From Marsupella aquatica (Eukaryota; Plantae; Marchantiophyta), in assembly GCA_973895155.1 (NCBI GenBank), contig OZ316893.1:432760-496759 (forward strand): a stretch of 64,000 nt of DNA, written 5' to 3'. The notes beneath the pieces were generated by a model. It searched no databases. It saw only the letters and a list, made by a program, of their open reading frames with translations, and was not told the origin of the DNA. The stretch's first letter is position 1; each line of letters starts with the position of its first letter. Below are positions 6,482 to 53,680 of this stretch, piece by piece. A program made the position numbers and the translations under genes.

Positions 6482-7529
6482 CACCGACAACATTCATGTA
6501 TATTTGCAACTTGGTTAGAGAAGATATGACCACACATCCCCCACCTGGCCTTCGCGATTTGACAAATAGAACATTGTCTGTTGAGCGTCAGGTTGCCATA
6601 GCCCTCTGTCGCTTTCCAGTGGTTGTTTGTTGTTGACGCTTTCAGAGATGTTTGGGGTTTCCGTGCCATGCATATCGGATACTGTTTGGCAATTTGTTAG
6701 GGCTTTAATTATGCGAGCAAGGAGAACACATTTGAGTTAACCACAAGGAGAAGCCATGGCAAGAGTGAAAGAAGAATTTTGCCAACTACAAGGATTACCA
6801 AATTGTTGTGGTGCAATAGACGACACTCATTTTCAAGTGGAGCTACCGCCTAGAACAAATTCCAATGATTACCGTGATTACAAGAATGGTCAGAGCATTT
6901 CTATGCAAGCTATCTGTGATAGTCGTCTTTGATTTTTGGATGTCTTTTTAGGATGGCCCGGTAGCATACAAGACTCTCGCCTTCTATGGGTGTCCGGATT
7001 TTTTGACGATGTTACAGTACACCACACAAAACTCTCACGTCCCATGTTTACATCACATACACGATTTTGTACAAGGGAGTACATTATTGGTGATGCAGGT
7101 TATCCTGCATATCCTTGGTTGCTAAACCCTTTCCCCGGTGCAAGAGAGCATAGCCGTAAGAGAGAATTTAACTACATGCTTAGCTCAACTAGGATGTGCG
7201 TAGAGCGTGCTTTTGGTCAGTTGGAAAATAGCTGGAGATTTATTTCATGCAAAATGTATTGTCCCTCTCCTTATCGATTGCCACATTATGTTACTTGTGC
7301 ATGCATTCTACACAATATTCGTATTGATCATGGAGATGTGTATGATCCAGCTTGGGGATTAGATGCAGACCCTCCTTATGAACCTGGAGGCCCTCCAGCT
7401 GGAGATCATAGTTTTGGTAATGGACGTAGACATCGTGTTGCAATGATGAACTATTTGTTGCCTGAGAGAGAATGGGAGCAGGAACGACAAAGACGTCGGA
7501 CTACCCCAAGGGATAATTATACATTGTGA
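6482..7529 (+). pseudogene. PIF/Harbinger (HARBI1-like, DDE_Tnp_4) transposase, 5'-truncated and disrupted
   Basis: Motifs LSVERQVAIAL, GLPNCCGAIDDTH, GWPGSIQDSR, IGDAGYP, FNYMLSSTRMCVERAFGQL and ACILHN. There are two in-frame stops and a frameshift upstream of ORF 6936-7529. Confidence 0.92.
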
Positions 7530-8120
7530 CTATTTATGTTTTCAAATGCAAATGTTGTAGGCAAGTTGAAATAAAATTTTCAATTGAAAAGTGCATGAAA
7601 GTGTCATCATAGTTTTTTTGCAATTCCATGCAACTGTTAATTGAAGTACTAGACCCTAAGTACTACACTTGATAAATACAAACTAGCCAAGTGCTACTCT
7701 ACTCGGGACTCTACTGTAAAGGTCGTGAAGAACTTGCAAGCTTCTCCATAAGGGCATTAGTCAAACGTGTCATCTGCTTGGATGTTGTCTTCATTGTTGT
7801 ACTCAAAGTTCTCTCTAGTCGCTCTCGGATTTCATACTCACATTCTCGCATGCAAGAATCATGTTCTTGGATATGAACATCACGCTTGGCCGTAGAAGCC
7901 ATCTCAGCACAACTGTTTGCCATGGTTCTCAAATGCGCTTGTTTATCACTACCAGACTTGGTTGCCTTTCGCTTCACACCTCTCTTGCTTGGGCCAGAAA
8001 AGTCCTGAGGGGTTGATGGTTCTCTCACTCCACCGGTATTCTCGACATTGTGTGACTGCATACCCTCGTGTGTTGGTCCTGGGCAGTATTCTTGGTTGGT
8101 AGGGATAGACATGAACCTCA

Positions 8121-11100
8121 TGTGGTGCGTCCCATGGCTCCCTAAACCCAAGAAACCCCCCAGCTCAAGCCGATTCCCGCGGGTTTCGCGCTTGGCGAGG
8201 CCGTTTCTGCGGCTTAGCGGCATGGGACGCTGCTAACCTTCTACTACTACTATTAACATTTTACACACATATACTGGACAGATCCTTCATCGGGTCATGA
8301 GATACGTAGCCGGCCTAATCTAGGCCTTCCCCTGTCTTCCCCTCCGTCTTGTTAGGTATGTTTGGATTCCGCCGCCGGAATGATCCCCAATAGGCTTGGT
8401 TAAGCCGCTAAGACCTCTCTCAGCTCGACACATCCAACTCTCACTCCCCTGCTTACTTTCCTTCCTTTTGGTTGATGTGGGCACTCTTCACACAAGTTAA
8501 TGCGACACACAAATAGCAAAATGACTCATTCTGATTGAGTCATACCATGCACTTGCCATACAAACAGTACATCTCATACACAAGCTCTGCGAACTAAGCC
8601 GTGAGGCCAACTCTATTCAGCTCTTAGGCATGAGGAAACATGAATATACACAAGGGTCACTGTATGACTAACCGAGAGCTTCTCGTACTACTTGATCCCA
8701 GCCCGGCTGGTGCAAACTAAAAACTTGCTAAAGAAGAGGCCCTGAGCTCCCCGCTGCCCAGGTACTTATCCTGGTAGTGGATCCGCCATTCTTTGCATCG
8801 TAAGCCTAATCTACTTAACAGTAATCTACTTGCCCGAATCTACCTATGTACAGCAAGGCAGGAGCACAAGTGTTGCTCCTACCAGTGGGACCGCAATCCC
8901 ACTAAGCTAAGTGTCAGGGCCGCTCCTAGTCCTGATCCTAATCCTAAACTTGGAGATCCGCGCCCGCCCTGCCCACTCACGCCTCCTCCCTCCATGTCCG
9001 CCCTCCCTAAAAGGAACGGCGCCCTTGCACCGTCACGACACCGGTGGTGGATCCTTAATGGACGCCCCCAACGCTTCCTCCTCAGCCACTGCCGTAGGCT
9101 CATTCCCTGACAGATTACCTGCCCTTGACTGAGTCAACTCTCCATCGGCCTGACTGGGTCCACCATCGGCGTCGGCATCGGCTCGGGAATCGGTTACAGC
9201 CTCAGCCTCGGCTACGGTCTCCCCGGCCTGCTCAAGAGGCGGATCTGGAATACCGGCCTCATTACTGAGTAGTTCGGCTTGGGCCGCACCACCCCCACCT
9301 GTGATGATAGCGGGATCTATTGCCGTATTCATGCCGGAGGATGGTGCTGGTTCTACCTCTTTGGTCACCACGGCTTGTGGAGTCGGATTACTCTTTGACC
9401 CAGAAGGTTTCCGTTTTTTCTTCTTTTCTGGTTCGGCAGCTGGTCCCTTCCCCTTCCCACTTACTTCCGGCACTGGTGCAGTTGGCGCGGCTTTTTCTTC
9501 GGCCAGTACCACTCCTGGTAACTTGGTTGCCCCAATTGGAGTTGGGCCTGATGAAGACAAGCACTTAAATACTGCGGCTTGTTTCTTCAGCCGCTCCATT
9601 TGGTTGTCGGCCCGCCGCTGGAGGTTCTCCATCTTCCTCGTGATTTCCTCCAACTCCTCCTAGGTCTCATCCAGGTCCTTGCGTGCCTCCTCTAGTTCCT
9701 TCTGGGCTTCCTCCCGTTCTTGTTTCAAGGTAGTCCTCTCCTCCCGGGTTGCTCTTAGCTCCTTGTCGAGCTCTGCAATGATGACAGACTCCATCTGGTT
9801 CATCTTGGCGTAAGTCTGTTCGAGCATCTCGTCCTTCTCCCTTAGGTCGGCCTTGAAGCTGGCCGCCAGGGACGCAAGCTCCTACTGCAGCGCCATAATC
9901 CCTTGATAGGATTTCCCTAACTCGGCCTCCTTCTGCTCAAGGGCTCCGCGGATTTTCTCGAGCTCCCCCTTCAACGCCCATTCCTTTCTTTGGGTCTCCG
10001 CCATGGCCCGACTGTTGGCTGTTATGTGGGCCTCCTCTGTATTCTTCAGCTCTTGCTTCCACTTCTCCCTCTCTTTGATCGTGTCGGCCAACTCTCCCTG
10101 CATCTGAGTCAGTTTATCCTTGATATTCTGATTATCAGCCTGCGCGGTGTCCAACTGCCCCTGCATGATGTTCAGCTCATGTCGTTTAATCCGCAGTTCA
10201 TCTTGGGCTTTCTTGGCCGCCCTTAGATCTTCAATCTCGGCTTCCATCCTCCTAAGCCGCCGAATGACCTCGTCCTTCTTGCTTCTCTCTAAAGCCACCG
10301 CTTCTTCTAATTGGTGCTTCTCCAACTGCTCCCTATGGAAAAAGGGTCCTACCTCCAAGTCCTCTCCAAAGATGCCGAGCGCAAGTTCCCCACACATCTC
10401 ACCATACTCCATGGCTCTATTCTTAGCGTAGGTGGAGTAAGTAGAAGTGATCGGCATCGCCCATCGCGGCCTCTGCTCCCAAGCCGTCCTGCGGATCTCT
10501 TCAATCGTGGCTAGAGGTTTGCTTCCTTTTTCGGCTAGCCGCCTGATGTCCTCCGGCCAATCTCCTCCTGGTAAATCCTTTTCCCTAGCCAGGGCTGCCT
10601 CCTCTTCCTGCCTAATTCGCTCCTGAAATTCCTGCACCGTCTATTTTATGCCGTCGAAGTTTGGGGGAGCAACATCTGGTGGGGGAGACTCAGGGCTACT
10701 CTGCTGGTTGGGGTCCCCTCGCACTACCCTTGGAAGTGTGGGGACAAACCGGCCACAGGTCCTTACTCCTGGAACGTGATGGTCCGACCCATAGCCGGAA
10801 TTATCATGGCTGCAGTCCTCCATTGCCTCCTCTACTTCTTGGACGTCCGGCTTCTCCCTCTCCTCTTCGTCGGTAGGAGCTTCAGGCAATTCTGCCTCAG
10901 ATTCGGAGCTTGAGATTCCCACGTACATTCGAACACCTGGCTTGGATTCCGGCCTGATTCTCTCCTTGTCTCCAGCAAAGGGTTTTCTCTTGTGAGCCGG
11001 TGTAGGCCTACCTCTGTAGTAGTGTCCTGCATTGTTGCCGTTGCCGTTGTTGTTGCCGATGCCGATTTCTTTTCTTTCTCCAGTAGGTTCACCAGACTCT

Positions 11101-12782
11101 GCATGCCTGGTTGCTGCATCGGCAAGTCCTCCTTCTTGGGCCTAAACACCTGCTCGATCGTAGGGCTAACAGGTGGTTGAGGCTTCTCAGCCAACGGTCT
11201 CGGCGTTGGAGCTTCCTCGGGTGCCCTTACCTGCAGGGGAAGTACTGGGGCAAAAGTCTGACCTCTGGCATACCGGCACAACAGCGGCATGTGATAGCCA
11301 AGCCGTGACACGCTCCCCATGCCGATTACCTACTGCTCCTCCTTTAAGATCTTCTTCAATTGGTTGAGGAGGTACCCGTTGTAGGCCCGGCTTGGGTCTG
11401 GCCTTTCTGCCAGATAGACCTGTGCCTTGCCGATCTCTGCCCTCGGCAAGTTACAATGCATGGTCACCCGCAAGAAGTCGATCATCTCTCCTATGTGCGG
11501 GTTGGTGCAGGTGTTCCGGAAGAAGCCATTCTTCGTTGATGGCCCGGGGAACGACCGGAACTCCTTGTCAGGCAAGGTCTTCCTGGTATCAACTTTGGTC
11601 TTATTGCCTATCGGCAAGCCAAACACTTCGGCAATTACCTTGGGAGTAAGATAGAAATCCTTCCCATATATCCTCGTGCAATTGGTCTCGGGTTCCCATG
11701 ACCCCACGAATTCTAATAGGTCTGACTCCGGTACCTCCGGCTTCAGCCATGGTAATCTTACAAAGGCCTCCAAGCCGGATCCGGCCATGAAGCCTTGGTA
11801 CTTCTTGGTCTGCATGGCCGTAAAGCATGCATCCTCCTCCCGTGCAAAATGTAGTTGCACCTCCACCGGTAGGGTTGCCGCCCAGCCCTTCCAGGTGTCA
11901 TCCCTGGTTGGAATGGCCTTGATGGGATCGACCTCCTCCTCTTCGGCTTCTCCCTGCCTCCTGCTCTGCTGCTCGGCTGGCTTCTTTGGTGCCGCCAACC
12001 TCGTTCTTTTTGCCGGGGTGGCTTCATCGTTGACGGCTCCCTTCCTCTTCATCTCTGCTGCCGTGGAGGTTTCTCCTAGCACCGTTGCCTGGGTCCACCT
12101 TTCCGTGCTACCCTTTAATTCCCAGTGTATGTCGTTGCAGTTCTTGATGGCCTCTCGGATGCCGACGATGCTGTCTTTGCAAAATAGAAGATCATCGAGT
12201 TGATTGGAAGTAGGCATCCACAGGAACTCATCCTTGATGAGTTCGCCTCCTAAGAAAGCCGTCTTCTGCAGCTCCCACAATCGAGCGAGCTCCTGCCGTT
12301 CTCGAGCTGCCCTTTCTGATTCCTCGTCCTCGTAAGTCTTGATGTACTCAGTTGCCCGTTCGAACAGGCATCCCCAGAAATGTGCCGCTTGATTGACGTT
12401 GCTCATACCCTCCTTAGGTTGATCGTCGGTATCTACTCTCTCCCCGAGTGCTTGCCTAAGCAGCTGACAGTAGTTGGCCTCCCGTAGTCGTCTGCCTAGT
12501 TCGTGCTCGCAAATGAGCCACCATCTCCTGCAAGCGCTCCTTACCCCTCTCCTCTGCCGGTCCTTCTTCCCGTTGATCCTTCCTAGCCGCCGACGCTTAA
12601 AGCGCCCTAACCCTAATCGAGTTTTCACCCTCAGCGTCCTTACCTCCGGCCTCGGCCCGGGTTCCATGGTTGCCCCTAATGGTTTATATTTTCCTTGTTT
12701 TGTCCCTATACTAAGGTGTTCCTAGGGTGCCTTCCTGGTTTACCCACTTAACTGGCCGAGTGATTCCTGTCTAGGCATCACA
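8121..12782. mobile_element. 4,662-bp TG...CA element with 5-bp TSD (solo-LTR-like)
   Basis: CCTCA at 8116-8120 and 12783-12787. Termini TGTGGTGC.../...GCATCACA are imperfect inverted repeats. No internal direct repeat and no RT or integrase motif seen. Confidence 0.8.
9033..12667 (-). pseudogene. Broken ~1,200-codon ORF: retrotransposon accessory-type domain, long coiled coil and acidic/Ala-rich tail
   Basis: ORFs 11330-12667, 10832-11320, 10641-10928, 9882-10637 and 9033-9653 join through four in-frame TAG codons (11330, 10641, 9882, ~9660) and one frameshift. EFVGSW...RIYGKDFYLTPKVIAEVFGLP resembles extra ORFs of plant Ty3/gypsy elements. Confidence 0.65.
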
Positions 12783-13779
12783 CCTCAACATCATCATCAC
12801 CTGCAAATGACATAATGTACTTGTTGTACTATTTAATAAAGGAAAGATATAGGTGTTGAAAAGGGGACAATAATTTCAGCGCAAAATAAAATCTGTGATA
12901 AAATATCACAGAATCACTTGCATAAAAAAATACCAAAATATAGCTACACCATGCAAAAATAAACCAATGTAGAGGCAAAAGTAAGTAAGTTCTTACTCTC
13001 TAATGATAAATCAAACGGATTCTCCTGTGCATTTTGGTCCATAGAAGAAATGTCAGAGATGAACTTTTTAGGTGGAGTGCCCGGTGGAGTGACGCGTGGA
13101 ATATTTGCATACCACTCCAACAATTGCTCATACAGATCAACAGAAAAATTAGTGGGGAATCGATGGTCGCGTTGGTCCTTGTCACCCATGTTAAAGTAAG
13201 AAACCTGCCCAGTTTTCTCCTTCTTTTCATAGTCATAAATTGTTTTAACTTGTTCTCAATAAGCTGCCACTTCTTCTTACAAGAGTTTGGATCTCGAGTA
13301 GGATTAGTGTACCCCTCATCCACCATAAACTTTGCCACTACTTTCCATTTCAACTTGCTACTAGTCATTTTTTTCTGTGTTGAGCCTTCCATAATGACAG
13401 TGTGAGAGGTTTTTTGCCGTGACAGGAAACATTAACAGGAAACAGGAAATGGTAACAGTAAAATAAGTGAGGAAATTTACACAATATTTGTGACATCCAT
13501 CAATAAAAAGGGTGTATAAAAATGCCGAGTATATTAGTAGTGCTTGGCGCTACTTTAAAATGTGTGTTACATGGTAGCAAAAACACAAAGCCCGATGACA
13601 ATACAAAATCTTAAGAGATACAGCGAGCAGAAAAACGGCTAAAGAACTGGGATGTAGTAAGCTCGCAAGAAAACATGGAGAACCGAGACTACAACCTAAC
13701 ACCTTCAATCTCCGATGGCGGTAGCGCCAGGCGCTACTATCGCAAAAGTCTTTAAGAAGACTCCATCTTTCAAACAATC

Positions 13780-14250
13780 TCAAGACGTTGATGAATGACA
13801 CTCATCATCGACTCCCGCATTGAAGCGATCCTCGTCTTGGCGAAATCCATCCTCTCGCTCAGCGAAAAAATGCGGTCCTGGAAGGCGACTCCTCAGCCTG
13901 CAATTTGGAATGTTGGAGTCAGAAAATCCGACTCGCCCGGTCCATTGTTGAATGCCCCTGAAAAACGCCGTCCGTCCAACCCTATAGACATTGGAAGGAT
14001 CCGGATCGTGAATAGAGAACCGTTCTCTAAAAGACCGGGGAGGAGACGAATCAGGGCATGATTCTGGTTTTGCTTGAAGGCTTATCCCTTCGTCCGAGGC
14101 CAGCCATAGTTGATTCCTCTCCATTGAGGTGATAGGGTGAGGAGTCTCATCGATCGGGACCTCTGAGGCAAGCAAATCAATTGAAGCTTTGCCTTCCAAC
14201 TTTGTGGGGCCGGAAGTTCTCTCACACAAGACTTGCTTTCCTTTCTCCAT
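13780..14250 (-). CDS. Hypothetical MULE accessory ORF or exon (156 aa)
   Basis: Open frame inside the element, bracketed by palindrome copies. No recognisable motif. Confidence 0.35.
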   Translation of the reverse strand: MEKGKQVLCERTSGPTKLEGKASIDLLASEVPIDETPHPITSMERNQLWLASDEGISLQAKPESCPDSSPPRSFRERFSIHDPDPSNVYRVGRTAFFRGIQQWTGRVGFSDSNIPNCRLRSRLPGPHFFAEREDGFRQDEDRFNAGVDDECHSSTS

Positions 14251-14652
14251 GGTCTCTGGATCAATGTCTATGCGGCGCTAAACGCAAAAGAGCTCCTGGA
14301 ATTCCTTGAACATCGGCGATGTCAAACGGAGAGGGTGTAAAATAGAAGAGGGTGTCGAAATACCTACCGTTGCAAAGGAATTCAACCTAGGGAAACAGGT
14401 ACGTATGGTAGTCAAGGTCTTTAAGGATTTTCATCGTACATCAGTACATGTACTTGCAGTTTGGAAAACATTACACTACACTTCACATCAGAAAAAGATA
14501 TGCGGAAGCTAATACCTTTCCCACTTCGTATTTATATAAAATTGATGCGTACAATAAGTAGCGTCCGGCGCTACTATTTTGGAGGAGGTAATCTGTTTTA
14601 AAATCATGAATATATAACTAATCTAATTTAAACTAACCTAATCCAATGTAAT

Positions 14653-14991
14653 CTAATCTCCAGATTCCGACTCACTACTCTCCGATCTATCCGTACTCTC
14701 TGCTTCATCGTCGATAAATTCATTTCGTGCCATATCATCGACAAATGGATGACGGATGAACTTTCTATCCAAACCACGTCTCAATCGCAAGCCCTTATTC
14801 TCCCAGGTCAGGGTTCTTCTACTCTCTTCTTTGCGAGCGGCATACTCTACGTATGAAGGCAATACAAATGGTTTCTCAGGGGTAATGAGGACTTTGCTTG
14901 AAAATTTCCTTCGCAGATTGAACCTCTCGCGAAGATTCCACCCTGACCTGCGAGTCAGTTGAAACACTAAGTACACTTCGAGAGATTCCAA
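14653..14991 (-). CDS. Hypothetical MULE accessory ORF (112 aa, basic core with acidic FIDDEAE tail)
   Basis: ATG-initiated open frame directly downstream of the ParB/MTase gene. Confidence 0.4.
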   Translation of the reverse strand: MESLEVYLVFQLTRRSGWNLRERFNLRRKFSSKVLITPEKPFVLPSYVEYAARKEESRRTLTWENKGLRLRRGLDRKFIRHPFVDDMARNEFIDDEAESTDRSESSESESGD

Positions 14992-15055
14992 TAATTCAAG
15001 TATACAAGATAAAAAGAAAACGGAAAGTTAAGTAATGTAAAAGAGCTTACGGGCA

Positions 15056-18000
15056 TTACTCACAAGAATCTGAATCTTCCGTTTCTCCTTCTGAATTCCC
15101 CTCATCCTTTTTCTCTCCTTCTTTCTGGACATCAATCTCGGCCTCTTCATCAGGTACATCATCTTCTTCTTCTTCGGAATCAAAATTCAGAACAGATCGA
15201 ACTTTATCTTTCACTTTTTTCTCCATGTCTTTGCTCGGACCAGCCTCACTCGATTCTTTCGGGAGGAGCAAGTCAGTGTATATCCTCTCTGCAATAGAAA
15301 CAAATTCCTTGCGATTCTCAATCCCAAGGATGAAACGGCCACAAAAATCACCAGCCACAAATGTACTTCCTGACCCAACCGTCCAGTCCATAATAATATC
15401 TCCCGGACGAGAAATTAACTCCAGGACAAACTGCATGAAACCAACCGGTAGTCGTGCATTCCCTGCAAATGCAGCTTCTAGAACAGGATCCTTCTTCAGA
15501 GTCTGCAGCCCAATGAGGTTTGTGATTGAAGGGTCCTCGGTTGAAGACAAAGGCTTGAACTTTGAATCTTTGGGGACCCTAACCTTTGATGTAACTCGAC
15601 TAAAGATATCAAGTCTTAAGGTGAAAACCTGGAAAATAAACAGTATTCAATATGAGATTTGGTAACATATAGTAATAGTGCCTGGCGCTACCCAAAAGAC
15701 CCTGCGTACACGAGGACATTTACATGTGAACATCAAACATGAAATGAGATCTATTAATAGCACCAAGCGCTAGCAAATGATTCTCTTGATTCAAAAGGAC
15801 AATTACCTGACAATCGCTTTTGGCCATGTACATTGGGGCACCCATAACAACGTTGAGCGTTTTGAGGCACTGGAACTTTTGGGAATCTTGGCTGGCCGAA
15901 ATTACTTGGGAGATCTGGTCATACTCCCCAATGTGCAAAACTGCTAACAACCCATCATTGGCAAGAAATGGGTCCATTGCCCGAAAGAAAGAGCCAACCA
16001 TTCGGTGATCCGGTACATTCCACTTTGGCAATTTTCGGTGAAGCAAAGAAGGTTGCAGACCTGTCGGTAGGTAGACAAAACCCGCATCCACCCCAAAAGA
16101 TCTCAACTTGCCTCCCCTAACTACCCCTTTCTCCCGGAGACCAAGTGTCACTAAGTCTTTTCCCCACTTCTCGACATTCGTCACCCACCTGGGTTTAGTC
16201 TCTTTTGTAAAAATAGAATCAAAAAAGTCCATTAGACTGGACTCAACAAACATATGACGGCAAACTTTGGACTTGAATTGACCAACTTCTTGTTGGACGC
16301 CAGTACATGCATACGAATCTCTAGAAGAAGAACCGAGATCAAGATTTTTCTTCTTCTTTTTTCTGGTGCTTGTGGCATCAACTGGACGATCAATGTTGGT
16401 ATTTGCAGGAGGAGTCTGCTCTTGGGTAGCATCGGCAGCCTCAGTGTTTGCTTTAGATTGATCAGGGGTAATGGTCGTCTTTGCATCTTGAGTTTCTTCT
16501 CCCTCTGATTTCCTACCCCCTGCAGAGAATCGAAAAGGTAAGAACACTGGGAAAACTATAACAGCGCCCGACGCTAGCCAAACATTTACTTTCTAAATTC
16601 TCGTGTATGAGTATACATTTAATAGTTTAAAGTAGCGCTTGGCGCTAACCAAAATCAATGCAAACAACTAAGTGAATTTCAGAGGAAAAGATCAAGAAGA
16701 ACTGCAAAAAGTCATATAACTTACGTTTTCTTCCGGATCTCGTGGATGGACTATTCAATCCTGTATCAACTTTTACTTTTGCGCGAGGTTTTTGGCTCCT
16801 TTCAACATGTAAGACTTTAGTCTCACATATTTTTTGAAGCTCCACTGCAGAAGCTTCAACGTCTCCCACCAATCCTTCCTTCATCTCAGACAACCATTTC
16901 CGAGGAACTAAAGATTTGGACAATTTCAAAAAGGCGTCTTTCTCAGATTCATCAAAAGGTGTATCCCACTTATCAGTATCGTGGTACCAGGAACAGTTTG
17001 TTCGCTCCCAAACGGAAATGTCACGTGGAGGATTGGCTCCTTCTACAGGATACATCGAGTAAACCTCACTGAAATCATCCCCATCCATGACCAACCACCT
17101 TTGGAACGCAGGAGGATAAGCCCAGAAATATTCAGGAGAATTGCTCTCCATGGACAAGAAGAACCGATAAAGGTATCTCTTTGCCCGCTTCTGGTTTCGG
17201 GAAGAAAAATCTTCTTTCTCCCCGTACTTTGACGCCCACATTGTGTTAAAAAACTTTGCCTTGACTGTATCTCCGTAACTTTTGAAATCATTGCAAATCG
17301 TCTGCACTAAAGCATCAAAAGTTTCTACACCTCCTGTGACAAGTCGTTCCGGAGGCATGACAGATTGAACTTGTCTGAGAGCAGTCTGCATCATTCCCAT
17401 TGAAATTCCTTCGATCCAACTCCACATGTGCCAAGTGTGACACCATTGTTTAACTGGTTCGTCGTTCACACTCGGCGGATGGAAAAATTGCTTGCGAAGT
17501 TCGGGCGTGCAATGCGCCACAAGAAGAGTGGAACGCAACTTTGGGTCCAAAGCTGAGACAGCAGTAAAGAGACGAGCACGATCCATCGTGCAAACCACAG
17601 CGTCTGCTTTCCGCTCTCGCTTGTTTTTCTCTGTCAGCGTGTACATTTCCGCACATGTTGACAGAAAATCTTCGAATTCGGGGCTAAGGAGTGGAGTGAT
17701 CTTTGAGGTCTTCACGCTCCATTCTTTTGTGGCCTCCTTCATCATTGCCGCATGACGCTTGGTGACCTCCTCCTTTGACCACGGCCTCCCTTGAGTGTTT
17801 GCAGTCGCCATGTCCAGTTTGAATTGCACAGAGTATGACTTGATCTTGTTCTCGCACAAGATGTACACAAGGGCCTCCAAAGGCATCTTCTTTGTATACC
17901 AAGAGCCTTTCCTTGTCTTTGCGCAAATTGCCTCAAAGCGTTTGAAGTTTCTGGCGTCAATTATCATCTTGTAATAATCAAGGTCATGGGACAGAATCCG

Positions 18001-18843
18001 ACTAATTCTGTCAGCATCGAGGATCCACGACGGTTCTACAACTGCTTGCCCCAATCTGTATACAACCATAATTTGTTAGCGCCAAACGCTAACCAAAATC
18101 CCATAATTGAAAATTTTTCCAAATCAAAGAAAATGACCAACTTACTGATTGACAGTGTGCATGGCGGCTTCAATCTCAATAAGAGAACCTCGATCTCCCT
18201 TGAACACAGTGCATAGCACACAAGGGTGGTACTTGACATTTTCGGGGTTCTCTTTTGTTACCTGTGACCAGGAATACAGACGATGATTCCCGTCGAACAC
18301 ACAAAACATCTTATCTTTTAAGACAAGGAAATCTGGATCTGCTTCTCATTTCTCATTTTGGACAGTCTAGACAGCATCCCAACTCTCGCGGATTTTGGGG
18401 GTACAAAATTGGATGACGCCTTTAGAATCAGCGGGTTGCACGTAGAATCGCATCCCAATAGAGGAGTTGTAACCGGAACTGCGAAATGATTCTTTTAGCT
18501 TCTCGATTGAAGCGCTCTCCTTCTGGAGAGTCCAAACAACTTCCATATTGACCAGGCGACAAAGCGGTATACGCGGAGGGTCCTTGGGCTCTCCTCTGAA
18601 ATCAGTGCCGAACGACATTGCATGTCTGGCAATCACATCTCCCATCGCTAGCGACCCTTCACACCCGTCTTCCATGATGAAATCACTCGAATTCTCCATG
18701 ACACCTCGTCTCTGCGTTGGGAAAGTCTGCGTAGAGTTCCGAAGAGAATGCGATGCAGTCGAGCGAGTAACGCGTCGTGTGTAAACAGAACCAGCGAAAG
18801 ATGTCTCCGATGTTTGAGAATTACCCGGGGAAGTGTTGTCCAT
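15056..18843 (-). pseudogene. Four-exon ParB-like domain + beta-class N4/N6 DNA-methyltransferase-fold protein
   Basis: Phase-consistent GT-AG introns at 18145-18056, 16724-16520 and 15806-15629. Exon 1 has MFCVFDGNHRLYSW (DGNHR at 18280-18294). Exon 3 has VDAGFVYLPTG...FLANDGLLAVLH at the motif IV-VI position. Exon 4 has PVGFMQFVLELISRPGDIIMDWTVGSGST...GRFILGIE (motifs X, I and II). Two in-frame stops in exon 1 (18367, 18346). Start codon uncertain. Confidence 0.72.
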
Positions 18844-19283
18844 ATCTGGATAAAGAGTCTTTGGCCCTAAAATTTGGAGAGTTCTCAGCCACTCACGAAG
18901 GCCTGCAACGTACTGTTGCAACCGAATAGATACGACCCACGTCCGAAACAGCCAGTATGGAGACCGTTTTCCCGCAACAGAATGACACGACAGCAAATCA
19001 CACAGCAAGATCAGATCTGTCAAATTGACCTTTGACAGGAAAAAGATCCAAAAAAGACCGACATCTGACTTAAATATGAATGTTCCATGATGAAAAATAT
19101 CAGGTAATAGAGCAATCGAACCAAAGAGAAAGGGACAGTTGGCATATAGTACTGACGTGGCTACTCAAATGTAACGAAGAATCTCATAATTAACATTCAT
19201 TCAAGAGGTAAAAACGGTCACACAGGCATAAAGTTACCGTTACAAATATTCGTTGGACAGACAACTCGGAGGATAAACATTAA

Positions 19284-19609
19284 TAGCGCCCGACGCTATC
19301 ATAAACATCACTCCTTCTAGACCAAAAAGTATACATATTTTCTGGTGAGTCGACCTGCAATACTAGTAATCCACTGAGTTTCTATAATAGCGCCCGACGC
19401 TATTATTGATTGTTGTCTAACATTCGTAAAATCTTTAAATGTTCCATCATATACATGAGAATCTCTTGTTTTTTTCATTTTCTGCAATAATAGCGCCAGG
19501 CGCTATCAATGTAGAGTATCAAACAAAGTCACGTTTTGCAGAATTCTGATTTTAAATTTCACGCTTTTGAATGACGATCTTGTAGGGTTTTTGCTAGCGC
19601 TTGGCGCTA
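19284..19609. promoter_or_regulatory. Phased array of four palindromes in the divergent intergenic region
   Basis: Start-to-start spacing is 104, 103 and 104 bp, with unrelated AT-rich spacers. The regulatory role is inferred from position. Confidence 0.65.
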
Positions 19610-19826
19610 TTATTCTCCGTTGTGAAAATGTTCGTTAAATTAACGGAAACATTTTGTTTTCAACGGTCATCCATCGCCATTTATCTCAAATTTATCCGTT
19701 GAGTTAAGGGTAAAGTTCTAAATATTTTTTGCGTTCGAGTGTGGTTTCTTCGTTCTTGATGATTTACTTGATGGAAATAATAAACCGAGGTTGGAAACAC
19801 CCTTACCATTTTGCCATTCTGTCAGA

Positions 19827-22800
19827 ATGTCACGGGTTATTAGGGTAAAATGTCTTGAAACGGGAGACATGATTAGCGTTCCTGTGACTTACGGAGATGG
19901 TAATCAGCGTGTGAGTGAAGATTATCTTTGCGGAAGGTTTGATGTTAGGAGGAAAGACATTGAAAGCTTAGGGACAACTGCTGAGGGGGTAGTGAATTCT
20001 TTTTACATTTTTGGTCAAAAATGGTGGGAACTGCACTGCGGTGTCGAGTACACGCTTGTCCTCCGAGGAAAAGTAGTGAAACTAGAGATGGTGGATGCAC
20101 CAACAAAGGTCACTGACCTCACGTTTGATGGCGATAACTCTTCCCCTGTCTCTCAATTGCCGATTGACATTAGGAACATCAAGCGTGAAGAGTGTCATTT
20201 GTTAAAGAATTCATTTCCAATGCATCAATGTAGTACCTCAACGGAAGACAATGGAGGTGACAAGCTTCTTAAATCTCCTTCTCTTGCTATAGTTTACAGA
20301 AGGAGCGCGTTAGATGCCCTTCTGAAATCGACTGGTCAAAGTGAGCTATCTCGATTTGTACGATCAGAGACTTTCAAGCACAAGCAAGTAGAATTTCTTC
20401 CCAAAACTTACAACGGCAATGTCATATTTGAGCTTCCGCCTGTCGATTGTGTGGGTTCAAAGGGGAAGCGTCTCCTTAACATGGACCGTTCAAAGGATTG
20501 CTATCTCTGGACTTGAATTCTTCCTACTTCTGCAAATGTTTTGCCGAAGAAGATGTGGGAGTTTGGTAAAGTCAGCTGTAGCGGATCACTTGAATGCCGA
20601 AACAAATCATGCAAGTTTTATACCAGAACAAATGGTAGGAATTGTAGCTCCTGGGAAGGGACCCCCAAGTTGGGAGGCCAACATTGTCCAGGAAAGTTGA
20701 TTGATTCAGGAGGGATTGTTTATCGGTATTGTCTTCAACTTCCGTTCTGTTTGGACTCCTATTCCGCAAAAATGTTTTACATGTACCCACAAGTTCTCCT
20801 GGATTCGGCGACAATGCAACATATGTCACGCCTCGCAGTGCATATGGGTGTCCATAACCATCCGTGTCGAAAGGTCTGGTCTAGAAGTTCGAAGATGATA
20901 GCGGTCGAAGAGATTCGGAAAGAGCATTTGAAGAATCCTTCTTCCTCGCCAAGTGTTTTGAAAAATGCGATCACTGGATCTCTTAAGGATGCACTAGATG
21001 AATCTATCGATGACATCTCAAAGATGGAAGAGAGTGAGATTTGGCAATCACTTATGCTTGTTTTGACTCCGCAGAAGTTCTCTGCCTTGTTTAAGAGTGT
21101 CCGGAAAGATCAGGCCGGGCGAGGAGACCTCGAATATCTGGTTTGGATGCAGAAGAATGTCAGGTTCCCATTTGTTCAAAAGTATCTACTTCCAGGGCAA
21201 GGCTCTAAGGAGGACCGAGCTCATATTTTCAAAATGACGATCAAAGGGCATGGATCCGGAATAGATTTGTTGCGACAGATGAAAAAGGGTGGACCCCTTG
21301 AAGGTGCGTGGGTGAGTTTTGATGTCATGAAACGAATGTCGAAAGATTGGAGTACTTTTAGCGCCCATGTTTATGACCATAACTATCGAGCTTTATGTAC
21401 AATATTTACGTGTGAGCTGAAAGCGGAGGACACTGAATCTCTCAAGCAAGCATCCAGGAGATTAATGATCTAGGTCGCTTTAGAAAATGGGGTAGATGAT
21501 GTTCAAATTCATGGATTCATGGCTGATAATGCTCAGTCGGGGTGGCATGCGGTCAGAAATGTTTTCTTTGGGGCCCATCCAAATCCGAAGAAAGAGAGAT
21601 CGGATGCTTTTCATTTTTACCAATCTTTGCACCGCCATTCTATCGAAGGAGTGCTTGAAGACAAACATTCTGAGCATCGCCTCCTTTGGGATAAGCTCAG
21701 AAATGCATCAACGTTTGTCGAAGCTTACAGGATTTCCCGAGAAATTGATTTGTGGTGGAGATCTGGCAATTGCATTCCCGGAAAGCTTCGGATGCTGCAG
21801 GGATGGATCTCTTGGTGGGTTGTAAGATGGCGGCAATGGGGAAATTTTATTCGACTTGTAAGTATCACCATTTTTGATTTTATTGAATAGACACTTCCAT
21901 ACTAGCGCCTGGCGCTATTATTAACACCTTATTTTTCTTGATTCTCTCAGCGTTTTGGTCAGCGCCTGGCGCTACCTTTAATTGATACATATTGTTGAAG
22001 AATATCAACTTATCTTCCAAAAGTAGATTTTGAGATTTGACGAACTCTGGCCGTCCTGCAGAGCAAAAGTGCACAAGGAGGGATGATTCCTAACTGCACT
22101 GGATTTGAGGCAGTTCATGGTATCATGAAAGCTTGGCAAGGGAAGAAAACTGTCGGATTATTTGAGGGTTGTAAAATTGACCACAATCGTGCAATCTCTT
22201 AAATTGCTGCTTATACTGCCTATCGGGATGGGTTACATAGAGGAACAGGTCCTACGGTATTTGAGCTAGCTTTCCGTTCAGCGGACCTGGCTGGATCCCC
22301 TCGATTGTTCGAAGAGGCTTCTAATTTGCTACTAGCTAATGCGGCGGAATTTGATTTGGAGAGGAGTACTCCATTGAACGGTGATTTTGTAACCAAATCT
22401 ATCAAAAGAAAAGGTCTAGCGACAGGGAATGTCTCGGCACAAGACTCCCATCGTCATGACACCATTCTGATAACAACACCGAATACACGGGGTTTGAAAC
22501 GGAGAAATCTGAACTCGGCTAAGTTTTCTCATATTCCACCAAGTGTTCCTGAGACATCGATCGATTTGACTGGGAGTGAGGGCCCAAGTGACTTGCTGGA
22601 CGCATCTGCTTCTGGTCCAGGTGAAGAATTTTCCACATTACCAGAAGTCTCTCAAATGGACCAAACTCCAGTCCTCCCTGACACGTCGCTTTTGGAGTCG
22701 GACGTTGAACCTGGGTCTTGGCATCTTCGTCGAATTTCAAGACTTGGGCCTGGTCCTCAGTGTAACGGGACATTGTCAAGTAGATGCGATTGTGATGAGT

Positions 22801-23573
22801 GTCGAAACCGGATTAAGAAGGTTGGATATCCTTCTAATGCTGGAGTGATCGGAATTGTTGCGAAGGGACATCGCCTGTTCAGGAGTGAACCTCATGCCAA
22901 GTTCGTGTGGTTTTGCCCCAACGGCAGTTGTTGGAAAAGCCGCCCACGTCGAGGCATCGCTAACCTGCCTCCTTATCCAGTTTCCTTGCCAGTACTAACA
23001 GGAACACATTTGTCAAACTTGGAGTTACGTTTCCTGGAAGAACAGGGTGTTGCAATCTCCAGACAACACCACCAAAGCATGCCTGCCAACCCTACGCCTT
23101 TTGACTTGAGAATCAATATTGATGTTTTTCCTGAGAAGATCAATATGGCACAAATCAACATCCGTGTTCGAACTAGGAATGGGCGCCCAATGAACCCCAG
23201 ATCAAATCTTACTCAGGAATACCATAGAAGGATCAAATCTACTGCGAAGGAAACAATGACTCTTATCACAGAATTGGACGTTTCCTCGGGGAACTCATAT
23301 GGGAAACGATTACTCATCCAAACACACGCTCATCTAAGGATGGCAAACACTTATTGGGTGCAGATTTGCGTATTCCCTTGTTGCTCTTGTGAGGACTTCT
23401 TTCGCCGACATTCTCGAGGAAGACCTTTCATGCCTTGTAAACATTTGTACTGAGTTTACAAAACAATCTTCAAGCTTGATCCGTTGGATTCGGTCTTACC
23501 AAGCCAGCCAATTTTGACTGTTGGAGAACTCCAGTACATCATAGGAAGGGGGAATTCGCATGGTTTAGAATAA
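19827..23573 (+). pseudogene. MULE-type DDE transposase with N-terminal WRKY/GCM-like Zn module and C-terminal SWIM finger
   Basis: One reading frame across an intron at 21858-22061. Motifs: CSGSLECRNKSC...HMGVHNHP; candidate catalytic residues in WVSFD, FMADNA and TGFEAVH; DAFH at the CxxH position; SWIM CSCEDF...PCKH. In-frame stops at 20514, 21471, 22200 and 23451, no frameshift seen. Confidence 0.82.
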
Positions 23574-24471
23574 TTCTTTTCAATCTACTAGACGTTGAAC
23601 GGGAATTTTTGGGTTGCCGTTTTTAACGGTAACAAATATTTTCTTAGCGGTCGGCGCTAGTTAAAGGCCGGCATTTTGTAATGTTGTTTTATCTGGCAAC
23701 AAGTATTTGGGTAGCGCTCGGCGCTAGTAAAAGGTCTTCTGATATTGTTGTATTCTGCCCTAAAAATATTGGAGTTCTGATTGAACTTGGTCTCCTTTTT
23801 GTCCAAAATTATGTCATGTTTTGTCGATGATAGTAGGTAATCTCCTGTTTTGTTGCACTCTTTTTCCTGTTATGAGCATTACTGTTTCCTGTTTCCTGTC
23901 ACGGAGGTTGGGCCCACAGTGTGATATTCATTCTGTTTTGCTGCAATGAGAACCGTCATCTCCTCGTCAGTCCAATCAGGCAACTTATTCCTTCCTTGAC
24001 GTTGTGGTGTAGTAGACTTGGGATCTGCAGCAATGTTCAGATCCAAATCACGCAATGGCACACCTTGTGAAGCCAAACTTTGGCCTAGAACCTGTCTCTG
24101 ATTTTGGCTTGTCATCTGAAAGGGACACAAATAAGTCAGTGGTGATTTTGCACATCAATATGTTTTAAACATATTCAATGCACAAAACACATCAAGTTCA
24201 TAGAAAGCATATAAAAACAAATTAAAAAAAATTTAAACCACAAGAGTTCTTCAAAAACCAATTGAAATTATTGCAACATGTTAAACCACATGTGTCCTCT
24301 TGAGGCTTTCAATATTTTCAACAAAATGATGAAGCAAAGTTTTATCATATTCATATATAATGATCCACAATATAATCATGGTCTGGAAAAGACAGTGCCA
24401 ATAGTAGGTCAAATAAGTATGACCTTAGAATTACATATCTATCTCTATCTTATGAAGGTAGTTTCATATGT

Positions 24472-30218: not shown

Positions 30219-32321
30219 ATGGCGAGTGGTGAAGAAGAAAATATTATGAACCTGCTTCGGAGAACTATTCCTGACGAAGCACGACTGAGAGACGTTGCTG
30301 CGAAACTATGGCTTGACTGCGTCGGAGTATCTACGTTGCTAGTGATGTCGGAAAAGCGCCTCGAAGACTTAATCCAGCGCCTGTTCCCAAAGGCACCTGG
30401 CGGATTGATACTGGCAGTTGAGTCGGCAATTCAGCTTCAAAAAGGAAACTCTACGGATGGTAATTCCAACTGAATTTCACAGCAATGTGTTTCTCGTCAG
30501 TATCTTGTGGTTCTTGTTCTGGTTTGTCTTTTCGTTGAGTTTTTTCCTTTGAGCACCCCTCTGTTGCTGCTTTGTTTTCTTTGCTGAAAAGTGATCAAGG
30601 GTATCATGGACAGCAGCTGTCGCCCTTGCTCTGGCATTTGTTTTGAAAGCACTTTTGCAATTACAGGTGTCCTGTGTCTTCCTGCTTTGCTAACCGATAA
30701 AGCATTTCTGCCGGAATCGTGCCAAATTTGTAGACTCCTTGCTCGAGTGATTATTGGATGACTTTCCTGTTTTTCTCTTCCTCTTCAACACTTCGTGATT
30801 GGTGTGTACGCAGAGGGGGCTCGACTTGCAAAAAAGGCAAAACCGTCACCAGAGGTCCTGTCCTTCGCAAGAGCTGCTGTTGATGCTAGACAGCGCTATT
30901 TTGGGAAACTGTTGGAACCACCTCCGACGCTCCCACGAAGTGCACATGAACTCTCGGAGTTTTTGTCCCAGACACCAGTACCGCTCCCAATTCGCAGTCT
31001 TGTAATTTTCAAGAAAATATGCTCTTCTGAGCTGGTGGAGCTTGATATTCCCGCAGCGGCGAAAGACTTGGCAACCTTCTGCGACGGTGTGTTCGGACAG
31101 ATAATGCGTCATTGTCCAGGCAATGAGGCCACCAGCTCACATGAATTGGCTAATCTCACTGGAGAGTTCATCTCATTATTAAATGAGGAGGCTCCAGCAA
31201 ACGGAAAATTACAAGGTTTGGACTGGTTACTGGATTCACCCAATCCCCCGACTAGTACTGTAGCATCGCGACCACTAAAACCGCTATTAAGACCAGATTT
31301 TCAGCTGTTTGTGAGGGATTGTCTCATTCTCCGATGGGAGAATAAGACAGACCGGGCACTTCGGCACGAGGCTGCAGTTGAGAACACCTCAAAATTAAAG
31401 GCATGGAGCCCTTTGTTCTATGGTAAGCTCCCTTATGTGATTGGTGGTTGCTCCGGTGGAAGGCTGTTTCAATGGCTGAAGCTCTATCCGCGAGGCAAGG
31501 AAATTGTTTCTGAAAGTATCTCACAACTCTATGACTTGAATATGTTGAGCGATGTAGCCAAGTTCCTACATAGCACCATTCGGATGCACTGTCTCCTACA
31601 GAAACTACAGGAAGAACTGGATAGTTACATCCCCTTGGCATTATATAGGCCAATAGCAAGAGGTGATGGTGGAGCAGTGACGATCTATCCTAACTGCGTG
31701 ACGAAGGAAATCCCACGATTGATGAAAGATAAGGTGACCGCGATAAAATGCCTGTATGAAAAAATCGATGGTTCCAGGTACCTGATCCAACTTATATGCG
31801 CCCGATCATCCAGGGCTAAAACAGTATTGCGACTACAACCTGTTGGTGACCCATCTGCAAAGCCTAAGGATTGCAAGGATTTAGTAAATGCCATGCATGA
31901 CATGTTATGCGGCCTTGCGGACTTGCACATGAAAGGCTACACCCACAGGGACATAAGGTGGCCCAACGTTATCAAAGTAAATGATATGGGTGAATGGAAA
32001 TGGGTGATCATAGACTTGGAAGCTGCTGGACCCGACAATGAAGTATGGGTTGGTGAGGACTTAACGGGTTGGGATGCGGAAACGTTGGAAGAAGACAATG
32101 ACAAAAGGAAAAGATACACCAAGGGATCGGACATGTACCAACTCGGGAAACTTATAGCTGAATGGCTCGATGACTTTTATATAGGCGGTACGGAAGAACG
32201 TCAATTGATGAGATCCCGGGCAAAACAAATGCAGCAGGAGCGTACAGCAGCAGCGAAGATGCTTGAGGATATCTGCAAGAAACGTTGCGAACGATGTCGC
32301 GTGTTTGGCACAAAGCTGTAG
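30219..32321 (+). CDS. Crinkler/CR-like protein: SAM-like header + PD-(D/E)xK-like domain + protein kinase (~582 aa, two exons)
   Basis: Exon 1 (30219-30459) and exon 2 (30814-32321) join in phase 1. LRPDF...LRWENK is an REase-like signature. Kinase motifs GLADLH, HRDIRWPNVI, IIDLE and SDMYQLG are present. No stops. Confidence 0.78.
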
Positions 32322-33955: not shown

Positions 33956-34094
33956 TGTTATACCCTAATTATGATTGGGTATACTAACTATAGTTAGAAC
34001 CCATGGTTAACTCCAACCAGAGTTACCATATGTATATATTCTCTCCTTGAAATAGAAGAACATATCATTGTTGGTGTATTTTTAGTTTGTAACA
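33956..34094 (+). repeat. 5' LTR (139 bp)
   Basis: Identical to the 3' LTR except for one TA unit. Confidence 0.95.
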
Positions 34095-34327
34095 CGTTAT
34101 CAGCACGAATGTGCTCTTAATTTATTTTTTAGGGGGTCGTTCAGTCTTTAGGCAGTTATACTTGACAGTTATCGAATTTGTCAACTTTTGGGCATCTGAT
34201 GCATGCCTTTTTCTTTAAGAAAACATCGAGTAACAATGAGGGATGATTACCAATAGCATTCCTATTCAATAGAATTATTTTTTTCGCACCACAATTCGGA
34301 ACTCAATTAGACATTTTTGATCTCAGG

Positions 34328-37300
34328 ATGACATCGAATTCCATTGAGAAACTTCTATTCCCAGCCTTGCAGATTGATGGCAAGAATTACAATGATTGGT
34401 ATATAGATGTAGAGGTCCATCTCACTGCAAAACGAATTGATGAGGCCATACACACAGATGTCGGTGTAGACCAATACACCAAGGCACAAGCCTTAGTACT
34501 ACTCCGACATCACTTAGTAGATCCTCTGAAACGTCAGTATAAGACTGTATACAATCCTCGATTACTCTGGGATGCATTGAAATCGAGATTCGAGCATATC
34601 ACTACGATCAATCTGCCTAATGCTCTACAGGCATGGGTTACTCTAAGAGTCCAAGATTTCAAATCAGTAGATTTATACAACAGTGAGATGTTTAGGATCT
34701 CAAATGAACTCCAAATGTGTGGAGAACCAGTAAGTGATAAACAGCAAATTGAAAAGACATTAGCTACATTTCACCCGACTAACTTGGTGATTTCGAACCA
34801 GTACAGGAATATGGCTTTTACAACATACTCCGCGCTCATTGCCCACGTGCTTTTAGCAGAACAAAATTCCATCCTCCTTATGAATAATGCAAAGGAAAGA
34901 CCTCCGGGGACACTTCCTGTACCACCCATTACTGAAACCAACTTAGTCACACAGGATATGAGAGGAGAAACATATATGACAACTTCTAATGGACAAACAT
35001 TAAGGGGGAGAGGTTCATACCGTGGCCGAGGAACAATTAGAGGAAGAGGAAATTTCTCTCAAAGAGGTGGATATAGTTCCAACTACAGAGGACGAGGTCG
35101 TGGAAGAATGAACAATGCGAATAGGAGCAACTGGAAGAGTGGAAAAGCAGATTTCCAACAACCAAATCGGGAGCGACAACGAACCTCCTTCAGCAATAAA
35201 CAACAAAACCCAATTACATGTTTCAGGTGCGGAACCAAAGGACACACCCAGAAGGTATGCCATGCACCTAGCCACCTCATTCTACTTTAGAAGAAGAGCT
35301 TGAACGAATCAAAATTCGAAGCACATGGGGCTTATTTAGAGTCACCCGAGATTATACCAGAAATCCATATGCTGAATTCATCACTGAATATCGAGGACCC
35401 AGACTTCTGCATCGTCGACAGTGGTACAACCCATACTATCCTTTGAGATAATAAATATTTCCATGGAATTACCCCTTCACAAAGGAAAATAACAACGATA
35501 ATGGGACAACATCAAATTGAGGAGGGTCATGGCAACGCCACAGTAGTTCTCCCAGAAGGAACAATTATTAAAATCACATCTGCGATATATGCTCCCAAAG
35601 CAACGAGAAATCTACTTAGTTTTAAAGACATAAGAGCAAATAACCTACATATTCAAACAGATATTCAAGACTCACGAGAAGTTCTACAAATAGTATCTCA
35701 CTCGTCAAAAGGCAGACTTGTTAAAGAAACTTTACAAGCTTACCCTTTAGGATACTATGCAACTCGAACTCAATGCTACCATGTTCAGACTGAATCACAG
35801 AACCTCACAGAGATCTGGCATAGACGATTGGGACATCCTGGAACAAGCATGTTCCACCGAATTGTCAATAACTCTAAAGGAGTATCAAAAGAAGTACATC
35901 CTAGAGCATTCAAAGGACCATGCCTTGCCTGCTCACAGGGCAAGATGATTACTGCTCCCTCCAATTCCAAAACCGGAAACCACATACCTGCATTTCTTGA
36001 GAGACTTCATGCAGATGTTTGCGGACCCATCGATCCTCCCAGTGGCCCATTTCGCTATTTTCTGGTCGTCATAGACGCAAGCTCCAAGTGGTCAAGGGTT
36101 TCCCTATTATCAACCCGGAACCTCGTTTTCTCTCGGATTCTGGCACACATTATACGGCTAAGAGCTCAATTCCCAGAATATCCAATTTGAACCCTCAGGA
36201 CTGATGGAGCTGGAGAGTTTACATCAAAAAATTTTGATGAATTTTGTCTCATCAACGACATTGATTCACAATACAATGTACCATATGTACATTTTCAAAA
36301 TGGTTATGGCCGAGTCACTTATTAAACGCATATAACTGATCTCTCGACCTTTATTAATGCAATCCTCTCTTCCAGCGACTGCATGGGGACACGCAGTCCT
36401 ACATGCTGCGTCTCTCCTTTTATACAGACCATCAGCCTACAATAGCACTACACCTCATCAATTGGCATTTGGAAATTCTCCAGACATTTCACACTCGAGA
36501 ATATTCGGATGTCAAGTCCTCGTACCCATCCTAGGTCCCAAACGGACAAAATTAGGACTTCAGAGAAGAAAAGGTATCTATGTGGGATTCGACTCTACAT
36601 CGATCATCCGATACATGGAACCTACCACTGTAGATATATTCAAAGCCCGCTTTACTGATTGTCATTTTTATGAAACCATTTTTCCAACTTTAACATCACC
36701 AGAGGGAAAACAGAAAACATTACCAAATATATTCACCTGGCACGCTAGTCCTGAACTATGTCCAGATCCACGCACAGAACAGGCTGAATTAGAAGTCAGA
36801 AGAATTATCCAACTCACAAAGATTATGGAAGTTATACCTGATTCATTCGCAGATGCAATGAATGTAACTAAATCTCATATACCAGCAACGAATACCCCAT
36901 CCCGGATACAAATTGGACCTCAGTTAGCGTCTGATCAACAATTGAAACCAAAGAGAGGACGCCCTCTAGGGGCTGTTGACAAACAACTCAGACAAAGGCG
37001 AAAGCTTCCAACATCACTTGAAACAAGACCACAAGCTCATACTTATATTTCAGAATCATATCACCCAGAGACAGCCATACATTATAATACCACTGGCCAC
37101 ATCTTAGATAGAACCCGAGTAATACCTGATGATCAATTTTCTTTTCATATATCACAGGATATTACTAACTTACCTGACCCGAAATCTGTCAAAGAAGCAC
37201 AAAACCAAACAGATTGGCCTAAATGGCAAATAGCAATGAACTCCGAGTTAGATTCTTTGATATCTAGAAAAGTATTTGGTCCTATAACCATTGCTTCTCC

Positions 37301-53669: not shown

Positions 53670-53680
53670 CATGCGCAGGC

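Follow-up and report, generated by a model that had tools for sequence, protein, structure and literature searches.

The closest described counterparts of the locus analysed here, a Mutator-like DNA transposon in a 64,000-nucleotide window of the liverwort Marsupella aquatica (contig OZ316893.1, positions 432,760 to 496,759; all coordinates below are those of the window), are transposons whose accessory proteins bind, or have been proposed to bind, their own element. VANDAL elements have a family motif in their introns and in their intergenic and terminal parts, to which VANC binds (PMC5735166; PMC10398659). In Ectocarpus, the element Sola1-1_Ec32 carries a ParB-like/N4-N6 methyltransferase (MTase) gene divergent from its Sola transposase, and such ParB-like/MTase proteins have been proposed to bind to the element that encodes them and to modify it (PMC12477816). 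The red-algal Plavaka elements, with the accessory genes PAG2/PAG3, carry a ParB-like/2-oxoglutarate oxygenase (2OG) gene beside tandem inverted repeats, again with a proposed role in self-recognition, and homologues were reported in Mutator elements of Chondrus (10.1101/2025.02.11.637652). Other fusions of a ParB helix-turn-helix protein with Dam have been described (PMC4738411), and Marchantia DN4MT1, a bacterial-type N4C methyltransferase that keeps the motif TSPPY, is a sperm gene of the host (10.1101/2021.02.12.428880). The Marsupella element combines a predicted ParB-like/MTase gene with 16 copies of a 15-bp palindrome, all in its non-coding DNA, and we lean, with modest conviction, towards the interpretation that a dimer of the protein encoded by the element docks on these palindromes in double-stranded DNA; in this way the protein would distinguish its own family from other genomic DNA and likely counter silencing.

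With VANDAL and VANC the element shares a Mutator-like host, an accessory gene and a family-specific short motif in non-coding DNA that is absent from exons. The VANC motifs, as their sources describe them, are non-palindromic words of 8-9 bases in tandem repeats, whereas the word here is a 15-base palindrome with mostly unrelated flanks and one clear tandem pair among its 16 copies. No search reported similarity of the accessory protein to VANC, though no direct comparison was made; by analogy, the element would work like the VANC system without being a VANDAL, and its accessory gene would be of an already reported kind. Sola1-1_Ec32 is a brown-algal Sola element of 21.5 kb, for which the account of the accessory gene names no target motif and the main text uses 'palindrom' nowhere, and the likeness of its accessory protein to that of the window is one of description, not of compared homology. 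The Plavaka elements resemble ours in having a ParB-like accessory protein and inverted repeats within the element; as presented in that source, they differ in that ParB is joined to a 2OG oxygenase, a gene of its own encodes the methylase, and the repeats form tandem arrays by PAG3 and are not dispersed in introns. Bacterial ParB-parS systems place several palindromes of about 15-16 bp in cis and use a helix-turn-helix, a CTP-dependent clamp and a ParA partner. The predicted ParB/Srx-type N-terminal domain and the multiple palindromes of about 15 bp in cis recall that arrangement, but the gene of the element is eukaryotic and intron-containing, gave no helix-turn-helix match in fold searches of the full protein model, and has no ParA-like open reading frame (ORF) to be seen in the element. 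DN4MT1 and the bdelloid N4CMT have a beta-class fold in common with a homologue of the window protein (N4CMT structures matched at E ~1e-8). The window protein differs from DN4MT1 in its degenerate motif IV and in that its MTase domain is joined to a ParB-like part and carried by a transposon. ParB-methyltransferase transposon genes were reported in algae in 2025, and non-coding motif arrays are known from VANDAL; our literature searches gave no report of a ParB/MTase gene in a land-plant Mutator element, of the present motif, or of a palindrome dispersed through introns, and the Bostrychia and Ectocarpus supplements may hold closer repeat layouts.

The word TAGCGYYnRRCGCTA occurs 16 times in the window, each copy lying inside the element and departing from the consensus TAGCGCCnGGCGCTA at two positions at most, and a scan of the whole 64 kb found no site within two mismatches outside the element. 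With one mismatch to the degenerate pattern allowed, 16 matches stand against 0.05 expected, a count equalled in none of 100 shuffles, and by weight matrix the 16 copies score 20.0-27.1, the next-best site of the window 9.7. None of them lies in a predicted coding exon, though such exons account for 73% of the element's length (P ~8e-10 when the 16 sites count as independent, ~2e-6 when they count as 10 clusters). A preliminary description made from the letters alone had the palindrome occupying every intron and never a predicted exon. The latter holds, and so do its counts of one, two and two copies in the first three introns of the ParB-like/MTase gene (even the 90-nt intron containing one), two in the transposase intron and nine elsewhere. 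The former was overstated, four of the five predicted introns being occupied while that at 14967-15063 has a best match with eight mismatches; a palindrome-free stretch of 97 nt is unremarkable under random non-coding placement (P 0.57). Its suggestion that the sites are spread along the whole element is likewise correct within the available non-coding space, this one predicted intron excepted.

Comparison of the flanks of 240 oriented copy pairs revealed one clearly related pair, that at 23645 and 23712, a 67-bp tandem duplicate (z 6.4, the next value being 3.6) in which 14 of the 15 palindrome bases are kept and flank identity is far lower. The flanks of 15676 and 15758 are weakly related (z 2.8). 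Because flanks are unrelated except in the one tandem pair, most copies are not recent duplicates. Variation among other family copies was taken from the best 40 of 67 substitutions in the four runs that hold the family, at a 10% cut; across the 369 bases of 19262-19630, two of 37 such variable positions, both minor, fall in the 60 palindrome bases (p ~0.04 for avoidance, in a test biased towards conservation), as do none of 12 listed indels. The positions 19293, 19397 and 19601, at which the window itself departs from the consensus, are absent from these best 40 of 67, and the departures are therefore probably family-wide tolerated states. Sequence depth in these runs peaks at all four palindromes of the promoter region, and some related contigs show the order motif-spacer-motif with unrelated and shorter spacers of 33-37 bases. 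The word is kept while its flanks are mostly unrelated, a pattern pointing towards a double-stranded binding site under selection, which supports the selection proposed in the preliminary description.

The form of the word fits a site bound by a dimer, as had also been suggested. Over their 15 bases the copies are 86-100% identical to the consensus, half-site positions 2-3 are invariant in all 32 half-sites, the outer flanks share an A/T-rich character, and none of the 18 departures from the consensus is compensated in the opposite half; position 7, which would be the loop if the word were folded, is the most variable. The departures had been read as decay of methylated cytosine in a CG-rich site. 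Although 15 of the 18 are C>T or G>A, only three lie in CpG and 12 in the inner CC; methyl-cytosine decay may be the source of the changes, the inner C being in CHG context, but the CpG core is largely spared. CCWGG was considered as a conserved core and rejected, as it is kept in five of the 16 copies only. The four palindromes of the divergent promoter region (19284, 19388, 19491 and 19595) are spaced by 104, 103 and 104 bases, which corresponds to about ten turns of the helix, and their spacers are unrelated; helical phasing as a general rule was rejected on the other spacings of 57, 67, 71, 82 and 184.

The accessory gene encodes, in one protein and divergently from the transposase, a predicted ParB-like part followed C-terminally by a PF01555-type MTase domain. 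The word DGNHR is conserved in the alignment of the N-terminal domain, and the N-terminus of a Riccia homologue hit ParB_N clusters of the ESM Atlas at 0.92 and 0.91 (127 of 256 features for the former); an unfiltered ESM Atlas search with the homologue returned fungal DUF3723, and the N-terminus of the window protein gave weak matches to DGQHR (E 0.069) and to a ParB-like PHROG (E 0.45). For the central helical domain, which is modelled in a homologue with a predicted local distance difference test (pLDDT) score above 90, there was no PDB match at Z of at least 5. PDB sequence searches with queries A1, A3 and A5 gave nothing useful. The fold of the C-terminal part in the homologue is that of beta-class amino-methyltransferases, with CcrM, M1.HpyAVI, PvuII and N4CMT matched at E 4e-11 to 1e-8. 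Where active beta-class enzymes have (D/S/N)PP(Y/F/W) as motif IV, 19 relatives out of 31 read D[LM]P[ST]G (the other 12 gave no pattern match) and the window protein reads YLPTG. Since these replace DPPY, the MTase part is more likely to bind or shield DNA than to write a canonical N6/N4 mark.

In contrast to the preliminary description, the gene does not end at 15056 but continues into a fifth exon, which gives 1206 codons with no stops other than the two in exon 1. Exon 5 matches the C-terminal segment TPE.P..LP.Y...A...HPF.DD of Riccia sorocarpa homologues, with P0131 as the best match (E 1e-6) and five matches at E<0.1 among 145 proteins compared. In several Riccia matches this segment and the MTase domain stand in one predicted polypeptide, the Riccia gene models being themselves predictions. 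As a query on its own among longer proteins, exon 5 recovered none of 147 candidates, the homology having emerged from relatives that were found by way of the MTase domain. Judged from reading frame and sequence, the five introns of the ParB-like/MTase and transposase genes would be spliced. Riccia sorocarpa, also a liverwort, has proteins related to both main genes at ~25-33% identity, other relatives being closer; it has dozens of copies of the ParB-like/MTase gene (P0116, P0114, P0117, P0120-P0145), several of them mislabelled 'trimethylguanosine synthase'.

In the docking interpretation that we favour, each TAGCGYY half would be read by one subunit of a ParB-like/MTase dimer, and the reader would be this protein rather than the transposase, whose own candidate word is ACAGGAAA at both ends. 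Once bound, the protein would cover or spread over neighbouring DNA and keep the DNA of the element from 5-methylcytosine (5mC) silencing, as VANC does for VANDAL, so that the element's protein would recognise, and possibly shield, the copies of its own family. Among the regions of the window that were measured, CpG depletion is weakest in the element, with an observed/expected ratio of 0.82 (0.85 in its non-coding DNA without the motifs) as compared with 0.25-0.68 in ten other stretches, which fits a long escape from 5mC. The candidate target is sharp, in that a single 15-bp word has 16 copies in the element and none in the rest of the window and lies beside the ParB-like/MTase gene. A bolder version, in which a land-plant transposon would have rebuilt a parS/ParB-type system by loading at the palindromes, clamp-like spreading and an MTase fold that marks or shields against 5mC silencing, is an analogy that we regard as tentative and on the whole doubtful; it would amount to a second anti-silencing system of plants, evolved independently, in non-flowering plants and with a defined 15-bp address.

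Several observations weigh against docking by the element's own protein. One of the five predicted introns holds no palindrome, and the CpG contrast is confounded by the age and origin of the element. The conservation test among family copies is biased, as sequence depth at the four promoter palindromes is ~2-5 times that between them in the four runs, so that minor variants there can drop under the 10% cut, and as the test covers the best 40 of 67 substitutions. In the homologue model the N-terminal part is of mixed confidence, and structure searches did not confirm its ParB fold: those made with the 906-residue model (PDB, BFVD, VIA) were uninformative for a ParB fold, and those with the full model gave no helix-turn-helix match. 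Motif IV lacks an aromatic residue in all of the 19 relatives, among 31, that show the pattern. Finally, no relative was recovered with both genes plus non-coding DNA in which protein and word could be compared across families.

If the docking interpretation is true, sequence-specific transposon anti-silencing would reach beyond the VANC and Spm systems of eudicots; it could possibly offer a programmable means to keep DNA unsilenced. The sharp target beside such a gene, in a land-plant Mutator-like family with numerous relatives in the liverwort Riccia, makes the hypothesis directly testable.

In a variant that differs from docking only in its effector step, an active MTase would have the palindromes as targets, so that the element would mark itself with N4-methylcytosine (4mC) or N6-methyladenine (6mA). 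The beta-class fold with its retained motif-I region, the spared CpG core of the palindrome, and the use of a bacterial-type 4mC enzyme by a liverwort (10.1101/2021.02.12.428880) would agree with this, but the degenerate motif IV, where that enzyme, MpDN4MT1, keeps TSPPY, speaks against catalysis, and we consider such self-marking unlikely.

Binding of the palindromes by the transposase, through its putative N-terminal zinc domain, would make them internal enhancers of pairing, transposition or self-activation. There is a precedent in the AtMu1 transposase, reported to activate cognate copies in a sequence-specific manner (10.64898/2026.08.24.746577), and the outermost palindromes lie 132 and ~190 bases from the ends of the element. 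Yet each end has its own thrice-repeated ACAGGAAA, which is unrelated to the palindrome and likely to be the site of the transposase, and 12 of the 16 palindromes are more than 1 kb from either end, so that we also give this proposal a small chance.

Rather improbable, too, is that a host transcription or chromatin factor, recruited to drive expression of the element, binds the palindromes. The ~104-bp spacing of four copies in the divergent promoter region and the position of another ~20 bases upstream of a TATA-like word would suit such a factor, and one copy contains TTTGGCGC, presumably an E2F-type word. However, TTTGGCGC is present in that one copy of the 16 only, the other 53 kb of the window, including other transposons and a BRCT-domain gene, hold no palindrome, and copies past stop codons and in introns are kept as well as those of the promoter.

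The preliminary description had also allowed for DNA or RNA hairpins, which might act as splicing aids, small-RNA decoys or cruciforms. A single copy can fold into a 6-bp stem with a 3-nt loop containing the variable position 7, and for two stretches of intron the folding is better than that of shuffles (z -1.9 and -2.45). Against this, the sequence of the arms is itself fixed and not their symmetry alone, the uncompensated departures break pairing on either strand, and some palindromes are in regions that are probably not transcribed. The flank symmetry that had been noted is at the level of chance, with 19 complementary positions versus 18.4 expected over 3 bases (p 0.48) and 25 versus 25.3 over 4 bases (p 0.57; 20,000 re-pairings each); a complementary run of at least 3 occurs in one of the 16 copies only, and the examples AGT..ACT and GTT..AAC include the palindrome's own T/A. 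In two of three cases the two-copy introns fold copy-to-copy, not into single hairpins. Hairpins are hence a very unlikely function. Least credible of all is that the palindromes arose neutrally when a small unit was locally duplicated or converted, for which the tandem pair 23645/23712 and the weakly related 15676/15758 could be cited, since the remaining flanks show no relation to one another and the 15 bases nevertheless keep close to consensus, and since even the duplicate pair has kept the palindrome far better than its flanks.

Table 1. Features of the Mutator-like element and their coordinates in the window
Feature	Coordinates	Strand	Evidence or remark
Mutator-like DNA transposon, 10,510 bp, decayed copy	13406..23915	.	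ends and 9-bp duplication, empty-site contigs
Target-site duplication ACAGTGTGA, left	13397..13405	+	sequence
Target-site duplication ACAGTGTGA, right	23916..23924	+	sequence
Left end: first base G, inverted core of 15 bp beginning 12 bases in, ACAGGAAA three times	13406..13449	+	
Right end: identical core, three ACAGGAAA words	23863..23915	-	
Palindrome 1, left subterminal	13538..13552	.	pattern scan
Palindrome 2, 44 bases past ORF3 stop	13722..13736	.	pattern scan
Palindrome 3, between genes	14559..14573	.	pattern scan
Palindrome 4, ParB-like/MTase intron 3	15676..15690	.	pattern scan
Palindrome 5, ParB-like/MTase intron 3	15758..15772	.	pattern scan
Palindrome 6, ParB-like/MTase intron 2	16562..16576	.	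pattern scan
Palindrome 7, ParB-like/MTase intron 2	16633..16647	.	pattern scan
Palindrome 8, ParB-like/MTase intron 1	18077..18091	.	pattern scan
Palindromes 9-12, divergent promoter region	19284..19609	.	pattern scan
Palindrome 13, transposase intron	21903..21917	.	pattern scan
Palindrome 14, transposase intron	21960..21974	.	pattern scan
Palindrome 15, 67-bp tandem unit 1	23645..23659	.	pattern scan and flank comparison
Palindrome 16, 67-bp tandem unit 2	23712..23726	.	pattern scan and flank comparison
ParB-like/MTase exon 1, DGNHR-type domain, two premature stops	18146..18843	-	frame, alignment, profile matches
Predicted intron 1, 90 nt, one palindrome	18056..18145	-	GT-AG, in frame, homologues continuous across
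Exon 2, helical domain	16725..18055	-	107 homologues; pLDDT >90 in homologue model
Predicted intron 2, 205 nt, two palindromes	16520..16724	-	sequence and frame
Exon 3, linker plus first MTase half with degenerate motif IV (YLPTG)	15807..16519	-	
Predicted intron 3, 178 nt, two palindromes	15629..15806	-	frame; Riccia models imply an intron at this place
Exon 4, MTase motif I region	15064..15628	-	Pfam N6_N4_Mtase E 1.4e-8
Predicted intron 4, 97 nt, no palindrome	14967..15063	-	GTGAGT..TTAG, 44% U, in frame
Exon 5, overlooked in the preliminary description	14653..14966	-	homology to C-termini of Riccia relatives
Transposase exon 1	19827..21857	+	6 homologues, 33-59% identity
Predicted transposase intron, 204 nt, two palindromes	21858..22061	+	homologue ends and frame
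Transposase exon 2, CxC...CxH motif	22062..23573	+	sequence
ORF3, no assigned function, ~177 amino acids, one premature stop	13780..14313	-	variants 13783, 13789 apparently silent in frame

The assignment of the element to the Mutator-like elements (MULEs), which have target-site duplications of 8-11 bp and, with G...C ends, terminal inverted repeats that are long or, in non-TIR MULEs, short and degenerate, rests on its 9-bp duplication ACAGTGTGA on both sides and on a G at both 5' ends with short and degenerate repeats. Contigs from three of four runs represent the empty site, joining 13396 to 23916 with 9 shared bases, and sequence depth across the whole element in four runs indicates a multi-copy family. 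The copy is decayed, with two premature stops in the ParB-like gene, four in the transposase and one in ORF3. Its insertion splits a Myb/SANT reading frame (13003-13405 and 23916-24154), which is probably part of a multi-copy Harbinger element whose DDE_Tnp_4 lies at 6933-7529; several minus-strand ORFs without assigned function lie at 7711-12721 in this probable Harbinger element.

The transposase gave no match to a MULE DDE domain in Pfam, NCBIfam and PDB-sequence searches; by eye it has conserved D, D, DxxH and a later E, which may be the MULE DDE pattern. It has a conserved Cys/His cluster at its N-terminus and CxC...CxH at its C-terminus, presumably a SWIM-like motif, neither with a profile match. 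In support of its predicted intron, similarity breaks off in four of six homologous ORF calls, which terminate just past the donor, and the splice is in frame. Metagenome scans returned four distant transposase loci (three short fragments and one weak match), none with a ParB-like gene, and the palindrome was absent from them at up to three mismatches. Upstream of a relative transposase (L001:1-100, 48% identity) there are two copies of GATATCATTTT and a third similar word, instead of the 15-bp palindrome, and these could possibly be a family-specific counterpart of it.

ORF3 has no Pfam match and could be another accessory gene. The TATA-like word near 14535, ~20 bases from a palindrome, would serve this ORF. 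A coding role for the palindrome at 13722 was considered and rejected, as the variants at 13783 and 13789 appear to be silent in a frame that stops at 13780.

The window is otherwise plant nuclear DNA rich in transposons, with copia, CACTA and Harbinger-type domains. A copia retrotransposon (33956-40068) has terminal repeats that are 97-98% identical, and CACTA/EnSpm transposase and TnpA-like pieces at 56237-62350 and 43108-43770 are strongly CpG-depleted. Directly upstream of the CACTA transposase, 53654-55827 (+) encodes NSD-type PHD fingers followed by BRCT domains. An ORF of 519 amino acids (30762-32321, +) matches Pkinase_fungal at E 4e-7 and adjoins a direct duplication of 3.19 kb, and at 1916-2162 there are nested long inverted repeats that resemble miniature inverted-repeat transposable elements, with arms of 31-40 nt that are 88-90% complementary.

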